A DNA stretch of 64,000 nt from an uncultured Alphaproteobacteria bacterium (GTDB lineage: Bacteria > Pseudomonadota > Alphaproteobacteria > JAJFIK01): NCBI GenBank assembly GCA_964522525.1, contig CAZFWG010000003.1, forward strand, positions 22,067-86,066, in the 5' to 3' direction. The translations under genes were made by a program, and so were the position numbers. The first letter of the stretch is position 1; every line of letters begins with the position of its first letter. Below, piece after piece: positions 3,851 to 54,872 of the stretch. The notes under the pieces were generated by a model that was not told the DNA's origin, searched no databases, and worked only from the letters and a program-made list of their open reading frames with translations.

Positions 3851-4255
3851 TCAGGTGTCCGACTTGTCGCGCCCGCGCAAGGCCACGGCGATGCCATAGC
3901 CCAGGGCGATGAGCAGCAGGGCCGGGATCAAAAGGACAAAAGCCGTGAGCGCCAACGCAATGATGCTCACGGCAATGCCGATGGCCGAGCCGACAATGCC
4001 CATGATGACGCCGAAAAGGGCGCCGAACAGACCCAGGATCAAGGGGCCCAGGAAAACACCGATCATGAGAGCCAGGAGCAGGGCCACCCAGAGCCAGGCG
4101 GAGCCCCGGGGCAGCCGGCGCTCGGGCTGCGGACCATCGGAGGATCCGCCCGCGCCTCGATCGGTCTGGCTCTGCCCATGGGATGAGCCGGTATCGCTGT
4201 TCTCGGCCGTCAGTTCAGGAACGATCGGAAGGTCGTTGTCATCAGGCTGTGGCAT
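3851..4255 (-). CDS. Hypothetical membrane protein with Gly-patterned TM helices
   Basis: Low-complexity N-terminus followed by about 70 continuous hydrophobic residues. Start trimmed to 4255 (MPQPDD), which overlaps the nadE stop by 14 bp. Confidence 0.7.
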   Translation of the reverse strand: MPQPDDNDLPIVPELTAENSDTGSSHGQSQTDRGAGGSSDGPQPERRLPRGSAWLWVALLLALMIGVFLGPLILGLFGALFGVIMGIVGSAIGIAVSIIALALTAFVLLIPALLLIALGYGIAVALRGRDKSDT

Positions 4256-5906
4256 CGCGAAACCTGTTTGTAATCGGATATCGGCGGTCGCGGCCGAAAT
4301 TCCGAGGACTGATCTTGACGCCGGGCGCGGCCTGCCGGCGCTTGTACTCGGCGAGATAGACAAGATGCTCGATCCGTTTCACCGTGGCCGGCTGATGACC
4401 GCGCGCCACGATGTCTTCAAACGCCATGTCCCCCTCGATGAGACATTCAAGAATGTCGTCAAGCTCCGCATAAGGCGGGAGTGAATCCTCGTCCCGCTGA
4501 TCGGCCCGCAGCTCCGCCGTCGGCGGTTTGCTGATGATCCGCTCCGGGATCACGACCCCTGTGGGCCCCTTGCCTTCCCGTGGCACCTGGCTGTTGCGCC
4601 ACCGGGCAAGCGCAAACACCTGCGTCTTATAAAGGTCCTTGAGGGCATTATAGCCGCCGCACATGTCGCCATAAAGGGTGGCGTAACCCACGGAAACTTC
4701 GGACTTATTGCCCGTGGTCAGCAGCATGGGCCCGAATTTGTTGGAAAGCGCCATGAGCATCACGCCCCGGATCCGGGATTGCATGTTCTCTTCCGTGGTG
4801 TCCGGCGCCCGATTGCCGAACAGGGGCCCCAGGGTCTCCGTGAAGGCGGCGACGGCGGCCTCGATCTCCAGCAGATCGTAACGGGTGCCGAGTGCGGTGG
4901 CGCAGGCCTTGGCGTCCTCGAGACTGTCGGCACTGGTGTAGCGGGAGGGCAGCATCAGGCACCACACCCGCTCCGGACCCAGAGCATCGACGGCCAGGGC
5001 CGCCGACAGGGCACTGTCGATGCCGCCGGACAGGCCCAAGACGACACCGGGAAAATGGTTCTTCTCGACATAATCGCGCAGGCCCACCATGGCCGCGAGA
5101 TACTGGCTTTCCGCCTCCTCGACCAGGGACACGCGCGGCCCCGTCTCGCAGGTCCAACGGTCGCCCACGCGAGACCAGGTGGTGGGCACCACGGCTTCGC
5201 GCCATTCGGAGGCCTGAACCACGATCGAGCCATCGGCGTTCATGACAAAACTGCCGCCGTCAAAGGCGAGTTCATCCTGTCCGCCGACCTGATTGACATA
5301 GGCCAAGGGCAGCCGGCTCTCGCCGACCCGCCGGCGCACATGGGTCAGGCGCATGTCATATTTGCGCGCCTGGAAGGGCGAGCAATTCGGGGCCAGGCAG
5401 AAAGCGGCGCCCGCCCGTTTCAGACCGTCCATGGGCTCGGGCACCCAGATGTCTTCACAGATGGGCAACCCGATGGGCACACCCCGGATCGTGACGGGAT
5501 GGGGCATCGGCCCGGCCTGGAACACGCGCTTTTCGTCGAAGACGCCATAGTTGGGCAGCTCGTTCTTGAAGCGCAGCGCCTGGAGCGCGCCGTCATCGAG
5601 TACGGCCACCGCGTTGTAGAGCTGGCCATCCGCCAGCCACGGGGCGCCGAGCACAATGGCGGGGCCGCCATCCGCCGTTTCCTGGGCCAGGGCATGGACC
5701 ATGGCCATGGCCTCTTCCTGAAAGGCCGGTTTGAGCACGAGGTCCTCAGGCGGATAGCCAATCAGAAAAAGCTCGGGAAAAACGATGATATCGGAGCCGT
5801 CTCCCGCCGCCTGGGCGCGCGCCGCGCGCACAAGAGCGGCATTGCCGGTGATGTCACCGACGACGGGATTGAGCTGGGCCAAGTGGATGGTAAGGCGATC
5901 GGTCAT
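4242..5906 (-). CDS. nadE: NAD+ synthase (glutamine-dependent, nitrilase + synthase domains)
   Basis: Nitrilase triad FPEL / KNELPNYGVFDEKR / ICEDIW, plus LGLSGGIDSA, TTGNKSE and AELRADQRDEDSLP. Start trimmed to MTDRLT. Confidence 0.96.
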   Translation of the reverse strand: MTDRLTIHLAQLNPVVGDITGNAALVRAARAQAAGDGSDIIVFPELFLIGYPPEDLVLKPAFQEEAMAMVHALAQETADGGPAIVLGAPWLADGQLYNAVAVLDDGALQALRFKNELPNYGVFDEKRVFQAGPMPHPVTIRGVPIGLPICEDIWVPEPMDGLKRAGAAFCLAPNCSPFQARKYDMRLTHVRRRVGESRLPLAYVNQVGGQDELAFDGGSFVMNADGSIVVQASEWREAVVPTTWSRVGDRWTCETGPRVSLVEEAESQYLAAMVGLRDYVEKNHFPGVVLGLSGGIDSALSAALAVDALGPERVWCLMLPSRYTSADSLEDAKACATALGTRYDLLEIEAAVAAFTETLGPLFGNRAPDTTEENMQSRIRGVMLMALSNKFGPMLLTTGNKSEVSVGYATLYGDMCGGYNALKDLYKTQVFALARWRNSQVPREGKGPTGVVIPERIISKPPTAELRADQRDEDSLPPYAELDDILECLIEGDMAFEDIVARGHQPATVKRIEHLVYLAEYKRRQAAPGVKISPRNFGRDRRYPITNRFRDATA

Positions 5907-5971
5907 GGCTTGAGTCTTAGACCGTCGCCCTGGCCGGGACAATATGGAGCGGCGAGGATCCTGCCCGCGCC

Positions 5972-7099
5972 TTACGCGAGGGCGTCGACCAGCACGTCGC
6001 AGACCCGGTCGACCTGATCGTCACTCAGATAGGGATGCATGGGCAAAGAGAGGATGTGATCCGCCAGCCACTCGGTCTCGGGCAGCCCCTCTTCCGGCCC
6101 GTAGGCCGCGAAAGCCTCCATCTTGTGACAAGGCACCGGGTAATAGATCGCCGTGGGCACGCCATGATCCTTGAGGGTTGCCTGCACCGTGGCGCGATCC
6201 TCAAGCGTGATCGAATAGAGCCCCCAGGACGGCTGAACGTCCTCGGGCCGCGCCGGCAGGCTCAGCGCGTCTTTCAGCCGGGCGTCGTAGCGGCTGGCGA
6301 TGCGGTTGCGCGCGACGAGTTCATCGTCGAAAATCGCGAGCTTTTCCAGAAGTACGGCGGCTTGCATGGAATCAAGGCGGCCATTGACCCCCACCCGCAC
6401 CGACAGGCGCCGGTCCTCGTCCGTCCCGTGCCAGCGCAGGGACCGCCACCGCTCGCCCCGCTCCTTGGTGTCAGCGAAGATCGCGCCCCCATCGCCATAG
6501 GCGCCGAGGGTCTTGGCCGGGAAGAAACTCGTCCCCGTCATGGGGGCCAGGTTGCCGACCGCTCGATTGCCGACCCGACCGCCAAAGCTTTGGGCGGCAT
6601 CGGCGATCACATCCATGCCATGCTCGCCAGCAATGGCATGGATCGCCGCATAGTCCGCCGGCAGACCGAAAAGATCGACGGGTACGACGGCGCGCGGTTT
6701 CAAGGTCCCGGCCTCGACCACCTGGGCGACTTTCGCGCGCAGATCCTCCGGGTCCATATTGAACGTGTCCCGGCGCACATCGACAAAGACGGGTGTGGCG
6801 CCGCAGACCAGAACGGCATTGGCCGTCGCGTTATAGGTGAAGGACGGAATGAACACCGCATCGCCCGGACCGATCTCCTCGCCCATCATGGCGATGACAA
6901 GGGCATCCGTGCCGCTGGAGACCGCCACCACATCGCCCGCGCCACTGCGGGAAGCCAGAACCTCCTCCAACTCGGCGATCTCGGGCCCGTTGATGTAAGC
7001 CCCATGGTCGAGCACGGCCTTGAGCCGGGCTTCGATCCGGTCCCGGATGCCCCGTTGCTGGGCCTTGAGATCGATAAAGGCAATGGGATCGGTGGTCAT
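5972..7099 (-). CDS. DegT/DnrJ/EryC1/StrS aminotransferase (GnnB/WbpE-like)
   Basis: FIDLKAQ, VSSGTDAL, DAAQSFG, SFFPAKTLGAYGDGGA (PLP lysine) and NGRLDSMQAAVL. Confidence 0.92.
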   Translation of the reverse strand: MTTDPIAFIDLKAQQRGIRDRIEARLKAVLDHGAYINGPEIAELEEVLASRSGAGDVVAVSSGTDALVIAMMGEEIGPGDAVFIPSFTYNATANAVLVCGATPVFVDVRRDTFNMDPEDLRAKVAQVVEAGTLKPRAVVPVDLFGLPADYAAIHAIAGEHGMDVIADAAQSFGGRVGNRAVGNLAPMTGTSFFPAKTLGAYGDGGAIFADTKERGERWRSLRWHGTDEDRRLSVRVGVNGRLDSMQAAVLLEKLAIFDDELVARNRIASRYDARLKDALSLPARPEDVQPSWGLYSITLEDRATVQATLKDHGVPTAIYYPVPCHKMEAFAAYGPEEGLPETEWLADHILSLPMHPYLSDDQVDRVCDVLVDALA

Positions 7100-7247
7100 G
7101 GCAGCACTCATTCTTGACGAAAACGGAAAAGGGGGCCGAAAGGACGGCAAGGAGCCAGTGCGGTTCCGCGCTTTCGCGCGAAACCGGAGACGTCTTCAGG
7201 GTCCATCTTGCAGCGGCAAGATCAGGAAAGGGATCCAGGCGATGCCG

Positions 7248-8225
7248 TTACGCCGTGAGCGCGTGGCGCAGCGCCGGATTTTCCCCATGGGCGGCCGTGA
7301 TGCGCAGCGCCGTATCCAGTGCCAAACGGGCATCGGCGCCGCTGACGATCGGCTCCTCACCCCGTTGCACACATTCGAGGAAAGACCCGATGCCATAGCC
7401 AAGGGGATCCTTGGCGATCGCACCGGCCGCATCGTCCTCGCCGCCAAAGGCCGGCTTGAGGTCTGCCGGCGTGGTATTGATCAGCGTACGGCTGACGAAA
7501 TCGAGAACCACCTCGCCATCGGCATAGATCATCCGCATCGACCGTTCCTTGGTCTCGGCATTGCGGCTGGCAAAGAGGCGGGCTTCCGTGCCGCAGGACA
7601 GGGCGATATCGGCCGTGACCTCATCGGCAAGATCGCCGTGGACAAACTGGGCCTGCGCCTTGGCCTGCCGGACGGCGCCGGGCGCCACCTGATGGACGAG
7701 GTCGAGATCGTGGATCATCAGATCCATCACGACACTGACATCCATGGCGCGGCCGGTGAAGGGCCCCGCGCGCCGGCATTCCACATAGACGGGAACCTGA
7801 TCGCGGGCGAGAACGCCGAACTGGGAAAAGACATAGCGCTCCTGGTGGCCGACCTGGAGGACGAGCCCTTTGCGCCGGGCAAGACGCACAAGTTCGTCCG
7901 CATGGGCCGTTTCAAGCGCGATGGGCTTTTCGACAAGGCAATGCACGCCCGCCTCGAGCGCCTGGCGCGCCAAGCGGTAATGGACGCGGGCCGGCGCCGC
8001 CACGGAAACCGCATGGACTTCCGCGAGCACAGCGGCAAGGTCCGTCTCGGCCCGGGCACCGACCTTATCGGCAACGCTGCGGGCCCGTTCCTTGTCCACG
8101 TCAATGACGGCAACCAAATCCGCGTCGGGGTTGGCGGCATATTTGGCGGCATGGAGCCCACCGAAAAAGCCCGCGCCAATGACGGCCACCCGCACCGGAC
8201 GTTCCGCTTTAATTCTGATCACCAC
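7248..8225 (-). CDS. Gfo/Idh/MocA oxidoreductase (GnnA-like)
   Basis: VAVIGAGFFG, HCLVEKPIA, VGHQER and DLMIHDLD motifs. GTG start at 8225 follows a GAGGAG RBS. Confidence 0.9.
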   Translation of the reverse strand: MVIRIKAERPVRVAVIGAGFFGGLHAAKYAANPDADLVAVIDVDKERARSVADKVGARAETDLAAVLAEVHAVSVAAPARVHYRLARQALEAGVHCLVEKPIALETAHADELVRLARRKGLVLQVGHQERYVFSQFGVLARDQVPVYVECRRAGPFTGRAMDVSVVMDLMIHDLDLVHQVAPGAVRQAKAQAQFVHGDLADEVTADIALSCGTEARLFASRNAETKERSMRMIYADGEVVLDFVSRTLINTTPADLKPAFGGEDDAAGAIAKDPLGYGIGSFLECVQRGEEPIVSGADARLALDTALRITAAHGENPALRHALTA

Positions 8226-20853: not shown

Positions 20854-21282
20854 TCAGAAACGGGGATCCCGGAGGGACATGCGGGTCGTCGCGCCGTCCC
20901 CATCGGTGATGGTCATCTCGATCTCCTCACCAATCGTCTCGAAGCCTATCAGCATGTCATCGACCCTGAAACTGCCGTGGCCCGCCTCGTCATCACCGAG
21001 AAAGGCTTCGGTGATGTCGCGGGACAGATCCGTGAGAAGACGTCTTTGGAGGGCTCGTGAAAAGCCATCTTCAGCCCCAGGAACGGCCTTTGCCTCTTCA
21101 TTTGCAGACGGAACCGAGGCCTCGCGCGGCGGCGCCGGAGGGTCGGCGGGAAACGCGCGGCCATCGGATGGGGGCGCCAACGATCCCAAAACGAATTCCT
21201 CCGCATGGGCCTTGAAGAATGACAAAGAAAGAACGAGCCCGAACCCGAAGGCAAGGGTCCCAACGATCATCTGCTGGCGCAT
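20854..21282 (-). CDS. Divergent CsgF-like (curli secretion accessory) exported protein
   Basis: Signal peptide (AHA/EE). The C-terminal half F.R.LQRRLL..LS..I.EA.LG.....GSF.......FE.....I.MTITD..G.TT follows the alphaproteobacterial CsgF pattern. Confidence 0.65.
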   Translation of the reverse strand: MRQQMIVGTLAFGFGLVLSLSFFKAHAEEFVLGSLAPPSDGRAFPADPPAPPREASVPSANEEAKAVPGAEDGFSRALQRRLLTDLSRDITEAFLGDDEAGHGSFRVDDMLIGFETIGEEIEMTITDGDGATTRMSLRDPRF

Positions 21283-21310: not shown

Positions 21311-21658
21311 TCAGAGGTCTGTTTCGGATGAGAGCACCGGAGCGGAACCGGCATTTTCATGGCGGGAGCAGGTAAACATGCGGCCCCAGGAATCACTCAC
21401 GGTGAGGCGCGCATGAACGGCGAGATCAAGGGACTTGCCGACGCCGATGGTGGCCAGTGTCATGTTTCCATCGGCACCAATCACGACCTCCCCGCTTTGC
21501 CTGCTTTGGACTGTGCCTAATACGGATGATTTACGGATGACAAACTCATAGCTCAAGGGCAGCGCATGGGCGGTTTTCTCAATGGCGCCCCTGGCGATGA
21601 AATTCAGGCATTCACCGCTGTCTTTGACATCAATTCGGCATGCGAAGGGTTTATCCAT
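21311..21658 (-). CDS. CsgH-like protein, no signal peptide in frame (possibly a 5'-eroded gene)
   Basis: About 100-aa beta-rich domain bracketed by two Cys (FAC...FTC) with Y.FVIRKS..G...S.QSG.V...A.LTV, the CsgH pattern. In-frame TAA at 21689-21691. Confidence 0.55.
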   Translation of the reverse strand: MDKPFACRIDVKDSGECLNFIARGAIEKTAHALPLSYEFVIRKSSVLGTVQSRQSGEVVIGADGNMTLATIGVGKSLDLAVHARLTVSDSWGRMFTCSRHENAGSAPVLSSETDL

Positions 21659-51137: not shown

Positions 51138-51974
51138 ATGTCAGTGAGTGACGACGACCCTAACCGTCAGGACGCCCAAGGCCAATCGGTGGGAATGTCC
51201 TATCGCATGGTTGATATCGGCCGTGATCTGTTGCTCGCGCTCGTCTTCCTGACCCGCCTGCCCGCGCCCCGTTTCACACCGGGTCCGCTCCGCCGGGCAG
51301 TCTGGGCGTTTCCGCTCATCGGTGTCCTTGTCGGCGCGATATCGGGCCTGGCCTATGGGCTTGGCGCGGCAATTGGCCTGGGGCCCTTGCCGGCCGCAAC
51401 CCTCGGTGTGGCGGCCGGTCTCTGGGTCACGGGCGCTCTCCATGAGGACGGCCTTGCGGATACGGCCGACGGGCTCGGCGGGGGCCGGGATCGTGAGGCC
51501 AAGCTCATGATCATGCGGGACAGCCGGATCGGCGTTTACGGCATGGCGGCGCTTGTGTTGGCTCTTGTGTTGAAGATCGCATTGATCGCGCAGCTTGCCG
51601 CGCCCGGCCAAGTTTTCGTGGCCCTGATCGGCGCCAGCGCCCTGTCCCGGGCGAAACTTGTTGTTCTGATGTATGTCCTGAAGCCTGCGCGGGCAGACGG
51701 CCGGGCGGCGGAGGCCGGTCGTCCCTCCGGCCTTGTGACGTTCATTGCCTTCGCCATCGGCGGCACCATCCAGGTCATCGGCGCCGGTTTCGACATCACG
51801 GCCCAGAGTCTCGTCCTCGGCAGCGGTCTTGTCGTTTTGGCCATGGTGGGCCTCGTGGCCCGGCGTCAGATCGGCGGTCAGACGGGGGACATTCTGGGCG
51901 CGGCTCAAGTCACGACAGAGCTGGCCTTGCTGGCCGCGTTCGTCAGCCTCACGGCGCCTTACATCGCGCCTTGA
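51138..51974 (+). CDS. cobS: Adenosylcobinamide-GDP ribazoletransferase (cobalamin synthase)
   Basis: FLTRLP, TGALHEDGLADTADG, IMRDSRIG and GGQTGDILGA. The start could be 51195 or 51207. Confidence 0.95.
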   Translation: MSVSDDDPNRQDAQGQSVGMSYRMVDIGRDLLLALVFLTRLPAPRFTPGPLRRAVWAFPLIGVLVGAISGLAYGLGAAIGLGPLPAATLGVAAGLWVTGALHEDGLADTADGLGGGRDREAKLMIMRDSRIGVYGMAALVLALVLKIALIAQLAAPGQVFVALIGASALSRAKLVVLMYVLKPARADGRAAEAGRPSGLVTFIAFAIGGTIQVIGAGFDITAQSLVLGSGLVVLAMVGLVARRQIGGQTGDILGAAQVTTELALLAAFVSLTAPYIAP

Positions 51975-53326
51975 AGCGGTCCGGAGACGCGAATGCGCGC
52001 GCCGCCATCGGGCGGATTGTCAAACGCGATGTCGAAGCCAAGCCGCGCGCAAAGCTGGCGCACGATGGGCAGGCCGAGGCCGTTTGAGCCTGCGCGACCC
52101 GCCAGAAAATCCGAATCAGGATCGTCCCCCAGACTGCGCAGGACAGAGGGCGGGAAGCCGGGCCCGTCATCCTGGATGGTCAGATCGAAACGGGTGGGCG
52201 AACATCCCAGGAGCAGCGCCACATTGCCCCCCAACCGCCCATGGCGAATGGCATTGTGGACAAGATTGGTCAGGATGCGTTCCACCAGGATCGGGTCGCC
52301 CTCGATGGTCACCGGATCATCGGGCCAGCCCGCTTCGACGCCGATGCCCCGATGGGCACCCAGTACCTTGAAGCGGGTTGCTGTGCGTTCCACCATGGCC
52401 CGAAGATCGACGGGCATGGAGGCCGTTTCCATCAGCCCACCCCGGATGCGCGCCGCCGTCTCCATGTTCTCCATCAGGGCGGCAACATACTGGATTTCGC
52501 CCAAGGTCCGCGCGAAGGCGTCGTCCCGGTCCGGTCCGGGCGCGGCCGAGGCGGCCCGCTGGAGGTTGAGTTGCATGGTCGCGAGCGGCGTTTTCAGGTC
52601 ATGGGCAACGGCCCCCATCAGGCCTTCAAGTTCGCTTGCCCGCTGTTCCAGCAAATGCGCGTCCGCCTTGATGCGCTGATCGGCCCGCACAAGGGATCGG
52701 GCGATGACGGATAAATCTTCCCAGTCATCAAAACGGGTAAGGGCAAAATCCGCCTTTCCCACATCGCCGGCGGCCTGACTGGCCGCCGCCACCCGCCTCA
52801 ATAGGGGCCGGGCGGCAAACAGATAGGCCCCCAAACTCGCCCCCACGACCGCCATCCCCATCAGGACAAGGATGGCCCCGCGAAAATCGCCGCGAAACAG
52901 GGGCACCGCCGTCATGGTGACCTGCACGAGGCCGCAGGGGCTCTCCTTGGATCGGCGGAGGAGGGCCTGGGTTCCCTTGCCCAGGGGCCAGCCCAACATG
53001 ACGGCCTGCCGGCGACCGCTTTCCGTGATCCGGCGGACCAGTTTGGGATTGAGTTCCGCGCCCCGGGTCCGCGGCTCGAGCGTGTTCGCGTCGAAAAGGG
53101 CCGCCTGCAGGGGCCCGACACGGATCGGACGGCGCGGCGGGCGTCCGGCCTCGCAGGCCCGCAGCGCCCGGCGGACGGCCGGTGTCTCGATCCGCTGCGC
53201 ATTGCTGACCACATAACGGGCCATGATCAGGGAGGTTGCCGCGCCGGCGAGCAGCACACCGCACAGGGCGAAAAGAGCCGTAGTCAGAATAATGCGCGTG
53301 ACGAGCCACGGACGCCGTTTCATCAC
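51959..53326 (-). CDS. Sensor histidine kinase
   Basis: Two TM segments, AHDLKTPL H-box, NLVHNAIRH N-box, DDGPG and GLGLPIV. Confidence 0.93.
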   Translation of the reverse strand: MMKRRPWLVTRIILTTALFALCGVLLAGAATSLIMARYVVSNAQRIETPAVRRALRACEAGRPPRRPIRVGPLQAALFDANTLEPRTRGAELNPKLVRRITESGRRQAVMLGWPLGKGTQALLRRSKESPCGLVQVTMTAVPLFRGDFRGAILVLMGMAVVGASLGAYLFAARPLLRRVAAASQAAGDVGKADFALTRFDDWEDLSVIARSLVRADQRIKADAHLLEQRASELEGLMGAVAHDLKTPLATMQLNLQRAASAAPGPDRDDAFARTLGEIQYVAALMENMETAARIRGGLMETASMPVDLRAMVERTATRFKVLGAHRGIGVEAGWPDDPVTIEGDPILVERILTNLVHNAIRHGRLGGNVALLLGCSPTRFDLTIQDDGPGFPPSVLRSLGDDPDSDFLAGRAGSNGLGLPIVRQLCARLGFDIAFDNPPDGGARIRVSGPLQGAM

Positions 53327-54009
53327 TCGGTTGCTCCCGGCTCGAAGCGCCAGCCGATGCCCCAGACGGTCTGGATGGCGCTGCCGGCCGGACCGAGTTT
53401 GGAGCGGATCCTGGAGACGTGGCTGTCCACGGTGCGGTCGAAACGCTCCCCCGATTCCGGCATGGCGTGATCGGCCAACATGGCGCGGGTCACGGCCCGG
53501 CCCGGACGCAAGGCCATATAGGTAAGGATATCAAACTCCGTGGGCGTGAGAGCGATTTCCTTGTCCCCACACTGGAGCAGCCTTGCATCGAGATCAATGC
53601 GGCAGTCCCCGAACCTGATTTCCGTGCGGTGGGACTGGTGCGCTTCGGCACGCAGCCTTGTCCGGATGCGGGCGACAAGCTCTTCGATGAAGAAGGGTTT
53701 GGACAGATAATCCACCGCCCCTTCCGTGAAAGACCGCAGGCGCGTGGAGAGGTCCGCATTGGCCGTCAGGATAATGACGGGGACGGACCATTCACGAACC
53801 AGCTGGGGCAGCACCGACCAGCCGTCCCGCTCGGGCATGTTGATGTCGAGGAGCACCAGGTCGAACTGGTTCTGCTCAAGGGCCTCCTCGGCCGCCGTGG
53901 CGCCGTCGGCCGCCGTCACCTCATAGCCGTACCGGGCCAGACCACGGACCACTTCCTCACTCAAGCCCGCCTCGTCATCGACCAGCAGGATCCGGGCGCG
54001 TTCGCTCAT
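53323..54009 (-). CDS. OmpR-family response regulator
   Basis: LLVDDE, LLDINMP, DYLSKPF and wHTH segment RTVDSHVSRIRSKL...TVWGIGW. Start trimmed to MSERAR. Confidence 0.95.
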   Translation of the reverse strand: MSERARILLVDDEAGLSEEVVRGLARYGYEVTAADGATAAEEALEQNQFDLVLLDINMPERDGWSVLPQLVREWSVPVIILTANADLSTRLRSFTEGAVDYLSKPFFIEELVARIRTRLRAEAHQSHRTEIRFGDCRIDLDARLLQCGDKEIALTPTEFDILTYMALRPGRAVTRAMLADHAMPESGERFDRTVDSHVSRIRSKLGPAGSAIQTVWGIGWRFEPGATE

Positions 54010-54126
54010 GCCCCATCCTTCCCAGCAATCCATCTCGCCCGCAGGCATAGAGCGTTTTCAGCACAAGATCCAATGGGTCGGGACCAGGCGCAACCTTCCA
54101 TGAAAGCCGCGCCTGGACACCTCGCG

Positions 54127-54693
54127 TCAGTTCCGGCGACGTCCCCGGGCCGCGCCGCGTCCGCCGGCCTTGCCGCGTCCCTTGACCGCGCCCCGGCCGA
54201 CGGCAACGCCCCGACCACTGACGGTCCCGGTGCCGGTCTTGGTGCGCACGCGTCCGTTGGAATCCCGATAAATCGCCGTGCCCGTGCCGGTCGCCGTGCC
54301 GCGACCCCGGGCAATCCCGTTACCGGCCGCCGCGCCGCGGCCTTTGACCCGACCGGTACCGACCCGGGCTTCCTGGACCGTGCCTTGACCGGCGACGGTG
54401 CCGGTTCCGGCAACCGCGCCCTCACCGACCGCAATGCCCCGGCCATTGACCGTGCCGGTGCCCGTCTTGGTGCGCAACTGGCCATTGGCATCCCGGTAAA
54501 GAACGGTGCCGGTCCCCGTGGCCGTGCCGGATCCCTTGGCACCGCCGGTGCCCTCGGCGACGCCCGTTCCGGATCTGGGCCCCGTGGTGGACCCGGCTTC
54601 TTCTTCCGCATGGGCCGCGCCGACCGTCATCAAACCCATAACCAGGCTGCCGCAAAGGAGGGCAGCCGATATCCCAGATGTCCGCTTCATCAT
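54127..54693 (-). CDS. Secreted Gly/Thr/Arg-rich hexad-repeat protein
   Basis: GGAG RBS, signal peptide (AHA/EE), 19 GxGxxx hexads and an internal 76-aa duplication. Confidence 0.8.
   Translation of the reverse strand: MMKRTSGISAALLCGSLVMGLMTVGAAHAEEEAGSTTGPRSGTGVAEGTGGAKGSGTATGTGTVLYRDANGQLRTKTGTGTVNGRGIAVGEGAVAGTGTVAGQGTVQEARVGTGRVKGRGAAAGNGIARGRGTATGTGTAIYRDSNGRVRTKTGTGTVSGRGVAVGRGAVKGRGKAGGRGAARGRRRN
54187..54528. repeat. Intragenic imperfect duplication (228-bp offset)
   Basis: GTCTTGGTGCGCA starts at 54236 and 54464. The flanking sequence encodes GTATGTGTxxYRDxNGxxRTKTGTGTVxGRGxAVG twice. Confidence 0.8.
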
Positions 54694-54872
54694 CTTTTCT
54701 ACTCCAGGGTTTCGGTACATCGACGGTCATGTTCCGAAGGCGAACATGATCGCGACACCGTCACGCTGGCAGGGGAATTTTGAGAAGCTTTGGAGGCGTG
54801 GATGAAGAAAACGAAAAACGGCGGATCCGTAGGGGACCCGCCGTTCCTTCAGCAACGGAAAACGTCGCAGGC

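Follow-up and report, generated by a model that had tools for sequence, protein, structure and literature searches.

The DNA analysed here is a stretch of 64,000 nucleotides (the window) from an uncultured alphaproteobacterium, and its source is a stromatolite metagenome. An open reading frame (ORF) on the minus strand of the window (54127–54693) translates into a protein of 188 aa, which is built of glycine-rich GxGxxx hexads and belongs to a previously unannotated family with no entry in any library searched. The most likely role of this protein is that of a polycationic envelope-stress effector or modulator. We consider it reasonably probable that it is an abundant exported polycationic β-ribbon protein, which is made when extracytoplasmic stress pathways fire, pairs via its glycine face, and binds anionic components of the envelope or acidic sensor partners.

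The hexad frame is judged to be a real gene, because a GGAG sequence stands 8 nt before the ATG, the register of the repeats is kept in homologues, and the pairwise ratios of nonsynonymous to synonymous substitution rates (dN/dS) among homologues are 0.05–0.35. Other long ORFs that overlap it, whether on the plus strand or in other frames, are high-GC artefacts; such ORFs are expected by chance because the GC content of the region is 65–70%, and the hexad frame is the one kept in homologues. Inspection of the window protein and of all its homologues shows the n-, h- and c-regions of a putative signal peptide; every homologue has an N-terminal hydrophobic segment with AxA-like residues at its end. 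In the window protein, the c-region has no lipobox (the residue at position −1 to the Cys is Leu).

The mature protein (159 aa) contains 19 GxGxxx hexads, grouped 4+5+5+5 and interrupted by two 12-residue YRDxNGxxRTKT inserts, YRDANGQLRTKT and YRDSNGRVRTKT; its N-terminus is acidic (EEE) and its C-terminus basic (GRRRN). This is exactly the layout that had been described in an earlier note made from the DNA sequence alone. When the mature sequence was shuffled 20000 times, the mean number of non-overlapping GxGxxx hexads was 7.8 and the maximum 14, so that none of the shuffles reached the observed 19, and the autocorrelation of Gly has its maxima at lags 6 and 12. The hexad periodicity claimed in that note is borne out by the sequence, and export is probable from inspection of the N-terminus. 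Gly (28%), Thr (15%), Ala (13%) and Arg (13%) dominate the composition of the mature protein, His, Cys and Met are absent from it, its pI is 11.9 and its net charge is +18.

Searches of 5.8 billion clustered proteins recovered first 13 and then 32 clusters of homologues, which have a single module and 95–150 aa, with profile E-values spanning 1e-36 to 1e-15. An exhaustive hidden Markov model search of 1.84 billion representatives returned 63 proteins at E ≤ 1e-3, 43 of these at E ≤ 1e-10, and the size of the family in this set is put at roughly 50 clusters. In a 34-row alignment, the module consists of a signal peptide, about five hexads, the segment [VI]YRDxNGx[IV]RxK, GTGTVSGRGIAIGRGTV, three further hexads and a basic tail; in all, 5–6 hexads follow the turn. 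The family was defined by a signal peptide, about five GxGx[AV]x hexads, a [YW][RK][DGN]xNGx[IV]xxK turn, a C-terminal arm of the GTGTVSGRGIAIG type in the same register, and a basic tail; the two window modules can each be aligned to 32 homologues with no gap. In this alignment, 10 Gly columns are invariant, and conservation reaches 90% or more in a further 11 columns, among which are those of the Tyr and Arg of the turn and of one Val. The earlier note had staked its reading beforehand on the conservation of the YRDxNG/hexad register in homologues, and the register is indeed kept with zero indels across ~72 columns and at least four phyla. Judged by these sequence comparisons, the family is real, rare and under purifying selection.

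Scans of the window protein against Pfam (to E = 10) and NCBIfam (to E = 1) gave zero matches, and a homologue likewise had no Pfam or NCBIfam match. The sources searched held no informative name for any member, only 'hypothetical protein', and a literature search on the features of the family, including Endoriftia combined with glycine-rich, returned nothing relevant. When one genome per GTDB species was scanned, 30 family loci were found. The main hosts are sulphur-oxidizing gammaproteobacteria (Chromatiales, Sedimenticolaceae, Sedimenticola, Thiodiazotropha, lucinid symbionts, and the endosymbionts of the tubeworms Riftia, Escarpia and Lamellibrachia); the others are Desulfobacterales, Desulfobulbaceae, Hydrogenimonas and other Campylobacterales (Campylobacterota), and Gloeobacterales cyanobacteria. 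In the class to which the window belongs, the family occurs in only 2 of 301 genomes, namely that of the window and G184, a genome from a different family of the same class. All 30 family cores that were scored carry a net charge of +8 to +17.

The regulatory context proved the most informative part of the analysis. A motif GT[CA][AG]AC[CA]-N15-17-CGT[TC] stands 33–72 nt 5′ of the start codon in 23 of 32 loci, while only 6 matches to it occur elsewhere in 574 kb of flanking sequence (both strands). Promoters read by extracytoplasmic function (ECF) sigma factors characteristically have AAC at −35 and CGT at −10. Three types of operon were found. In the first (five gammaproteobacterial loci), the hexad gene is followed by genes for an ECF sigma factor of the NCBIfam PRK09047 type, a DUF3619 protein, a small acidic exported protein and a DUF3106 protein, and the autoregulatory promoter of this module is GTCAACC-N15/16-CGTT. 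The DUF3619 protein has one transmembrane (TM) segment and an acidic periplasmic tail, the DUF3106 protein consists of basic helical repeats, and both the C-terminus of the DUF3619 protein and the small exported ORF (o2) are extremely acidic. No paper on DUF3106 or DUF3619 in the setting of an ECF module was found in the literature. In the second type (four distinct loci), the order is ECF sigma factor, zf-HC2 anti-sigma factor, LTXXQ/Metal_resist protein and hexad gene; three of these loci belong to Desulfobulbaceae metagenome-assembled genomes (MAGs; L024, L033, L041), and the fourth was seen both as a metagenome contig (L010/L011) and in a Campylobacterales MAG (L038). The third type comprises two-component systems of three kinds, in which the hexad gene precedes an OmpR-type regulator and a kinase (the window and G184), is accompanied by a divergent OmpR-type pair (L006), or precedes a LytS-type kinase and a LytTR regulator (L008).

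In the tubeworm symbionts, ~200 kb separate the hexad gene from the sigma-DUF3619-DUF3106 operon, which is preceded by the same promoter motif. Co-occurrence was examined in 17 genomes, G000 and 16 that carry the family: where the motif stands at the hexad gene, 11 of 12 genomes have DUF3106, and of the 5 genomes without the motif, among which is that of the window, none has it. The homologues are transcribed from the site predicted for the ECF sigma factor. In four metatranscriptomes, the Endoriftia-type gene is represented by a discrete contig of ~450 nt, whose 5′ end (L027:319) is 10 nt 3′ of the CGTT at 306–309, and the copy of the Lamellibrachia symbiont is also covered by RNA contigs; no metatranscriptome contig mapped to the Sedimenticolaceae locus, even at 85% identity. 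The expression that the earlier note had wished to see is thus found for a homologue. Transcription is apparently strong, given an assembler depth of 44–418 in assemblies of only 1.4–2.8 Mb, contig depth being a rough guide. Taken over its loci, the family appears to be an output of extracytoplasmic (envelope) stress signalling, with an ECF sigma factor presumably transcribing the gene in most lineages.

In the window itself, the hexad gene starts a new transcription unit, because a terminator-like hairpin closes the upstream membrane-protein gene. It is followed by co-oriented genes for an OmpR/PhoB-family response regulator, whose true start is likely the Met at 54009, and a sensor histidine kinase; no terminator was predicted between the hexad gene and the regulator gene. 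G184 has the same order, a two-module hexad gene followed by regulator and kinase, with 61% identity between the regulators and 46% between the kinases over their full length, including the periplasmic domain. This conserved synteny suggests control by the adjacent two-component system, and the hexad gene probably heads an operon with its own regulator and kinase, autoregulated via a block upstream of the gene that is conserved in G184. The OmpR-type regulator may bind to this block, or the block may be a promoter element. Its exact core, CCTCCAAnnnTTCTCA, is unique to the hexad-gene site both in the genome of the window and in G184, and a regulon search with the block returned only the hexad gene itself in the two genomes. 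The stem-loop between the hexad and regulator genes could act as a processing or attenuation element, letting the first gene out-express the regulators.

Only a weak GGAAC-N16-CGAA element was found at the window gene, and the genome of the window has no DUF3106. This element, at 54716–54741 on the minus strand, ~24 nt 5′ of the start, resembles an EcfG-type promoter without the TT; alphaproteobacterial EcfG-type ECF promoters have the form GGAAC...CGTT. The upstream genes for an SH3b-like protein and a membrane protein were considered as conserved parts of the locus and discarded, as the terminator-like hairpin separates them from the hexad gene and homologues of neither occur in other family loci.

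As regards its architecture, the window protein is best described as a tandem duplication of a ~75-aa module. The 19 hexads are split over two copies of one module (residues 30–107 and 108–188), which are 64% identical as protein and 70% as DNA, module 1 being far less basic than module 2. Two-module proteins are also encoded by a Gloeobacterales MAG (L039:5932-6528) and by G184 (L054:7958-8506, minus strand). Tandem duplication of the module has apparently happened more than once; in a tree of modules (66 columns), those of the window are among each other's nearest neighbours, not exclusively so, and the tree does not resolve the number of duplications. The independent two-module versions in L039 and G184 suggest that two hairpins work together as a unit.

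That the module is a hairpin is predicted by AlphaFold2. One module, modelled with the family alignment, gave a single very long hairpin (strands 5–36 and 42–77) with a mean predicted local distance difference test (pLDDT) score of 61, rising to 79 at the tip. The model of the whole mature protein contains two such hairpins (pLDDT 48, predicted template modelling score (pTM) 0.27); in its alignment, MAFFT had put all single-module homologues on module 2, leaving module 1 nearly without depth. The YRDxNG segments, proposed in the earlier note as β-hairpin turns, are the tips of these hairpins, and the turn D-x-N-G (YRDxNGx[I/V]RxK) is, by general hairpin statistics, the sequence of a common 3:5 hairpin.

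Covariation was evaluated as mutual information (MI) with average product correction in 60 module sequences of less than 90% identity, in an ungapped register of 72 columns. For the 16 variable cross-strand column pairs in the register of the model (i + j = 70), the mean corrected MI is 0.100, to be compared with −0.001 ± 0.023 for random re-pairing of the same columns (the observed value was reached in 0 of 20000 trials), and with −0.05 to 0.023 for 18 alternative registers. In the i + j = 70 register, Gly is opposite Gly and Ala/Val opposite Ala/Val, with column pairs such as 5/65 (V-A, V-G, A-V) and 10/60 (V-A, T-T). AlphaFold and covariation thus support the prediction that each module is one long antiparallel hairpin of ~30 residues per strand, and not a solenoid. 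Because Gly pairs with Gly and Ala/Val with Ala/Val, one face of the predicted ribbon would be nearly free of side chains; the opposite face would carry the majority of the Arg and Lys residues, a patch of Ile/Val and, close to the tip, Thr/Ser. The division into a small-residue face and a T/R/K face that had been noticed at the outset is therefore real, and the covariation-backed hairpin model sharpens it to cross-strand pairing of Gly with Gly. No meaningful match to the sequence or to the model was found in the PDB: the best hit of a sequence-profile search was a tick allergen (E = 0.21), and Foldseek with the one-module model gave nothing below E = 0.6, matches being meaningless at such a low pLDDT.

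These results bear directly on the idea of a self-assembling extracellular fibre, functional amyloid or β-solenoid, possibly ice- or mineral-binding and exported by a curli-type (CsgG/CsgF) route. A glycine-only face on a long β-ribbon would suit tight sheet-on-sheet packing, tandem duplication occurred more than once, Thr/Ser residues cluster near the hairpin tip, and CsgF-like and CsgG-like genes are present in the genome of the window. Nevertheless, we regard this explanation as quite improbable. The solenoid proposed in the earlier note is seen neither in the models nor in the covariation, which favours the antiparallel register over offsets of i+12 and i+18: at solenoid-type offsets (6, 12, 18 etc.) MI is at most 0.048, with 0.042 at offset 12 and −0.001 at offset 18. 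A β-solenoid, including the left-handed hexapeptide helix (PF00132), was also rejected for want of a Hexapep match; neither a Curlin nor a hexapeptide-repeat match was obtained from Pfam even at E = 10. The arms have only five hexads, and a net charge of +8 to +17 would oppose unassisted stacking. Secretion or nucleator genes are adjacent to the hexad gene in none of ~35 loci.

Nor do the individual fibre systems match. Silk fibroin (GAGAGS) shares with the hexad protein the hexapeptide period, the alternate Gly and a β-sheet with one glycine face. It differs, however, in that its (GA)n stretches run to hundreds of residues, its other face bears Ala/Ser, and its crystallites are intermolecular, whereas the hexad protein has runs of 4–5 hexads, Thr/Arg/Lys/Ile/Val on the other face, Ala/Val at every third 'small' position, and a strictly conserved hairpin turn that pairs two arms within one chain. 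The likeness to silk suggested in the earlier note does not extend to a fibre, as there are five hexads per arm and the even positions are polar, charged or Ile; classification as a silk-fibroin-like sheet former was dropped for the same short runs and for the T/R/K/I/V residues at even positions. The curli subunits CsgA and CsgB are exported, as is predicted for the hexad protein, and likewise have strand-turn-strand repeats with GxG motifs, but the hexad protein has no Ser/Gln/Asn ladder and no Curlin_rpt match, and its strands are ~30 residues long against ~7–9 in curli. Identification as a curli subunit or substrate of the type VIII secretion system was abandoned on the lack of a Curlin match and on the distribution of CsgF, which is missing from 13 of 16 family genomes and is distant from, never adjacent to, the hexad gene in the other three; the link to CsgF/CsgH that had been raised as speculation fails on the same count. 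The CsgF-like ORF of the window (20854–21282, minus strand; Pfam E = 5.8e-9, 36.6 bits against a cut-off of 25.8) is 33 kb from the hexad gene, its 'CsgH-like' neighbour (21311–21658, minus strand) is a weak match below the cut-off (E = 0.0068), and the CsgG-like genes of this genome are on other contigs (C136, C16).

Thr-ladder solenoids of ice-binding and antifreeze proteins are likewise rich in Gly and Thr and have a flat Thr/Ser patch, which in the hexad protein would be near the hairpin tip. In the latter, however, there is no coil repeat of 12–19 residues and no signal of parallel stacking, the Thr positions are partly conserved (consensus T/S/T/V/I), and the context is unrelated to freezing. 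Ice or mineral binding, as envisaged in the earlier note, finds no echo in a genomic context of envelope-stress regulation and metal resistance, and the hydrothermal, sediment and stromatolite hosts do not point to cold adaptation.

At the other extreme, the protein might be a low-complexity, intrinsically disordered exported polypeptide without defined structure or specific function, as the low AlphaFold confidence along the arms and the strongly biased composition could indicate. This we find scarcely credible, considering that no indel disturbs the register from one phylum to another, dN/dS stays far under 1, the covariation singles out one register, and the regulatory wiring is conserved.

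The favoured reading, that of a polycationic envelope-stress protein, leads to the following possible mechanism. Under envelope stress, the hexad protein would be made in quantity and exported to the periplasm. Its hairpins would pair via their glycine faces, within the chain in two-module proteins and as dimers in one-module proteins, and the Arg/Lys face would bind polyanionic partners in the envelope, candidates being the head groups of lipopolysaccharide or phospholipids and the acidic periplasmic tails of the DUF3619 protein and of the small acidic protein. In this way the protein would shield the envelope, act back on the sensor, or do both. Polyanion binding is a reasonable inference, because every member scored carries a net charge of +8 to +17.

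The closest functional analogues are CpxP, Spy and ZraP (LTXXQ; PF07813/PF13801), all of them small proteins exported via Sec, whose genes adjoin the signalling system by which they are induced. These proteins are regulon outputs, CpxP and ZraP being feedback modulators as well, and an LTXXQ gene is found directly 5′ of the hexad gene in one of the operon types. The LTXXQ proteins are α-helical hairpin dimers, whereas the hexad protein is Gly-rich and predicted to be all-β, with no relationship to them in sequence or fold; neither PF07813/PF13801 nor any other Pfam family matched the window protein at E ≤ 10, and it contains no LTXXQ motif. In the main rival explanation, the cationic hairpin is a dedicated CpxP/ZraP-like feedback modulator. 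It would tune the pathway by binding to its own sensor on the periplasmic side (to the acidic tail of a DUF3619-type anti-sigma factor or the small acidic partner, or to the periplasmic domain of the kinase), with no bulk protection of the envelope. Such a function would agree with the fact that the hexad gene adjoins regulators in 12–13 of ~25 distinct contexts, where it frequently opens an autoregulated unit, with the contrast between extremely acidic co-encoded periplasmic segments and an extremely basic hexad protein, and with the order hexad gene, regulator, kinase that is kept between two families. We nonetheless think it unlikely. One co-evolving receptor is disfavoured because the sensors vary, with at least four unrelated types as partners (two ECF modules, OmpR/EnvZ-like, LytS/LytTR), and because the regulators of the window and L006 are only 35% identical. 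The periplasmic domain of the window kinase is basic, not acidic, and an abundant effector would account better than a stoichiometric regulator for the transcript level in symbionts, which is apparently high.

Other small exported proteins offer further comparisons. MucE and the C-terminal peptides of outer-membrane proteins (OMPs) trigger sigma-E-type proteolytic cascades; MucE and the OMP peptides may resemble the family in their tie to ECF sigma pathways, and many family C-termini are aromatic amid basic residues. However, an aromatic C-terminus is not universal in the family (GRRRN in the window protein), and the conserved operons contain no PDZ protease. The sulphur-globule proteins SgpA–D of Chromatiales are Sec-exported, as is predicted for the hexad protein, and are likewise small, Gly-rich and repetitive; they occur in sulphur-oxidizing gammaproteobacteria. 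The hexad family, in contrast, extends past sulphur-storing taxa to Desulfobacterales, Campylobacterota, Gloeobacterales and the lineage of the window, and is driven by ECF or two-component systems.

The neighbourhood of metal-resistance genes raises the question of whether the protein is a periplasmic Cu or Zn buffer or chaperone of metal-stress regulons. Neighbours include a Cu P-type ATPase (L003), the multicopper oxidase CopA with CopB (L018), a Cus/Czc-type resistance-nodulation-division pump (L021) and an ABC-3 metal permease (L039); LTXXQ/Metal_resist proteins stand beside family genes, and the members at L003, L018 and L021 carry 5–8 His, often as GHG. As a general explanation this is highly improbable. 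Metal binding is at most a subfamily trait, because the mature window protein has no His, Cys or Met, most members have 0–2 His, and the invariant residues (Gly, Thr, Val, Tyr, Arg, Lys) are not metal ligands. The members with 5–8 His may form a metal-binding subfamily; one of them, at L033, closes a sigma/anti-sigma/LTXXQ (Metal_resist-like) operon.

Finally, a small, cationic, Gly-rich, exported product could be a bacteriocin-like antimicrobial peptide under the control of adjacent regulators, and the locus in which the hexad gene precedes genes for a LytS-type kinase and a LytTR regulator recalls bacteriocin and pheromone loci. We give this hardly any weight, since the leader resembles a Sec signal peptide and is not of the double-glycine type, no conserved immunity, ABC exporter or modification genes are nearby, the gene is present and transcribed in intracellular tubeworm symbionts, and an ECF envelope-stress promoter drives it.

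Returning to the envelope-stress protein, several points weigh against it. The window gene has no ECF motif, its putative two-component control is deduced from synteny, and the window sequence is present only in DNA runs from stromatolite metagenomes. About half of the genomic contexts have no adjacent regulator (e.g. the glcD neighbourhood of the tubeworm symbionts and the PBP neighbourhood of Cyanaurora). Confidence is low in both the one-module and the whole-protein model, the models do not tell how hairpin packs on hairpin, and arms on their own may be disordered; covariation was drawn from a small sample, whose 60 sequences are phylogenetically related.

A more far-reaching structural reading is also conceivable, which we put forward tentatively, as a possibility that is itself less than likely. 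The modules would represent a new structural class of two-stranded ribbons, ~100 Å long, with a side-chain-free face (Gly-Gly pairs with Ala/Val knobs), which join face to face into a cationic periplasmic lattice or strut under envelope stress. Such an envelope-reinforcing or charge-shielding device would be prominent in chemosynthetic symbionts, and may cooperate with DUF3619/DUF3106 and DUF1800/DUF1501 proteins. If true, it would be a physical stress device unlike any known stress effector; if the protein is only a charge buffer, its gene would still be a useful marker of envelope stress in uncultured sulphur-cycle bacteria.

The internal duplication, the family, and its wiring to ECF sigma factors and two-component systems go beyond the earlier note. 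Work on CpxP, Spy and ZraP has revealed a great deal about envelope monitoring and repair in bacteria, and the hexad family would place an unrelated, all-β, glycine-striped protein in the same regulatory niche, in at least four phyla. The family also provides a handle on the uncharacterized sigma-DUF3619-DUF3106 module, namely a defined promoter motif and a first regulon member, and the predicted very long Gly-Gly hairpin, for which the PDB offers no counterpart, may appeal to those who design proteins or work on amyloid and silk. The positions of the features discussed are collected in the table.

Table. Features of the hexad-gene locus in the window (first 13 rows) and related features at other family loci (last three rows; positions refer to the locus named).
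Feature	Position	Strand	Description
Terminator-like hairpin	54814–54848	minus	15-bp stem and T run; closes the upstream membrane-protein gene
Conserved upstream block	54775–54798	minus	CGCCTCCAAAGCTTCTCAAAATTC / CGCCTCCAAnnnTTCTCAnAAaTTC; alignment with the orthologous G184 locus; TTCxCx-like direct repeats ~10 nt apart
Shine-Dalgarno-like GGAG	54702–54705	minus	8 nt 5′ of the ATG at 54693; read from the sequence
Hexad-protein coding sequence (P0001)	54127–54693	minus	188 aa; stop codon 54127–54129; homologues, and purifying selection in homologues
Putative Sec-type signal peptide	54607–54693	minus	Residues 1–29; MMKRTSG, hydrophobic core, AHA/EEE; sequence inspection
Module 1	54373–54606	minus	Residues 30–107; acidic lead EEEAGSTTGPRS, 4 hexads, hairpin turn, 5 hexads; AlphaFold strands 12–38 and 44–72 (mature numbering)
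Hairpin-tip insert 1	54463–54498	minus	YRDANGQLRTKT, residues 66–77; block of highest pLDDT in the models
Module 2	54130–54372	minus	Residues 108–188; EARV linker, 5 hexads, hairpin turn, 5 hexads, GRRRN tail; strongly basic; AlphaFold strands 5–36 and 42–77
Hairpin-tip insert 2	54235–54270	minus	YRDSNGRVRTKT, residues 142–153; sequence, alignment and model
Stem-loop	54084–54116	minus	15 bp, no U tract; between hexad and regulator genes; region −37.2 kcal/mol, z = −1.85
OmpR/PhoB-family response regulator	53323–54048	minus	Pfam Response_reg and Trans_reg_C; co-oriented with and directly 3′ of the hexad gene
Sensor histidine kinase	51959–53326	minus	Pfam HisKA and HATPase_c; two TM segments, periplasmic domain of ~120 aa; start overlaps the regulator stop by 4 nt
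GGAAC-N16-CGAA element	54716–54741	minus	Weak; ~24 nt 5′ of the start codon
Sigma-DUF3619-acidic ORF-DUF3106 module	L005:5834-6924; L015:7139-8241; L046, L048, L049		ECF module
Members with 5–8 His	L003:8001-8336; L018:849-1181; L021:17-352; L033:3322-3699		Possible metal-binding subfamily
DUF1800/DUF1501	L013:1388-3603; L010:6504-9542; L035:125-2074; L054:3077-5640	minus; minus; plus; minus	Full pair confirmed by Pfam in L013, DUF1501 only in L010, DUF1800 only in L035, pair by eye in L054 (G184)

Some further observations concern the neighbours of the family genes. A DUF1800 gene and a gene for a Tat-exported DUF1501 protein are recurrent neighbours of the hexad gene, in several lineages that are unrelated to each other (Sedimenticola, Hydrogenimonas, the L010 locus, which is also that of a Campylobacterales MAG, and the class of the window). 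At L013, the pair is divergent and has another copy of the ECF-type motif as its promoter; in G184, it follows the kinase gene in the same operon, and in the genome of the window DUF1800 genes are found on other contigs only. In seven tubeworm-symbiont loci (L017, L019, L020, L023, L025, L026 and L032, at ~4200–8000 in each), the hexad gene lies between the gene of a conserved ~520-aa protein, whose L017 copy has no Pfam or NCBIfam match, and glcD/glcE-like FAD oxidase genes; in this glcD neighbourhood it is transcribed from its own ECF-type promoter.

Other observations concern the proteins themselves. Many members have a Trp in the first hexad (GKGW[VA]KG), core columns 4 and 66 of the 72-column alignment being concerned, and many have an aromatic residue 1–4 positions from the C-terminus (GRF, RFK, WK, RYRR). 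The hairpin model places the N- and C-terminal ends of a module side by side; the window protein has neither Trp nor a C-terminal aromatic residue. A public gene call of 274 aa (P0011), which joins an upstream LTXXQ-type protein to a hexad protein, is probably an annotation artefact of a sigma/anti-sigma/LTXXQ/hexad operon. A metagenomic protein of 265 aa (P0062) combines a degenerate hexad-hairpin module and a His/Arg-rich linker with a C-terminal 17-kDa outer-membrane surface-antigen domain (PF16998, E = 1.1e-5, just under the cut-off), a fusion which hints that the module may be tethered to the outer membrane.

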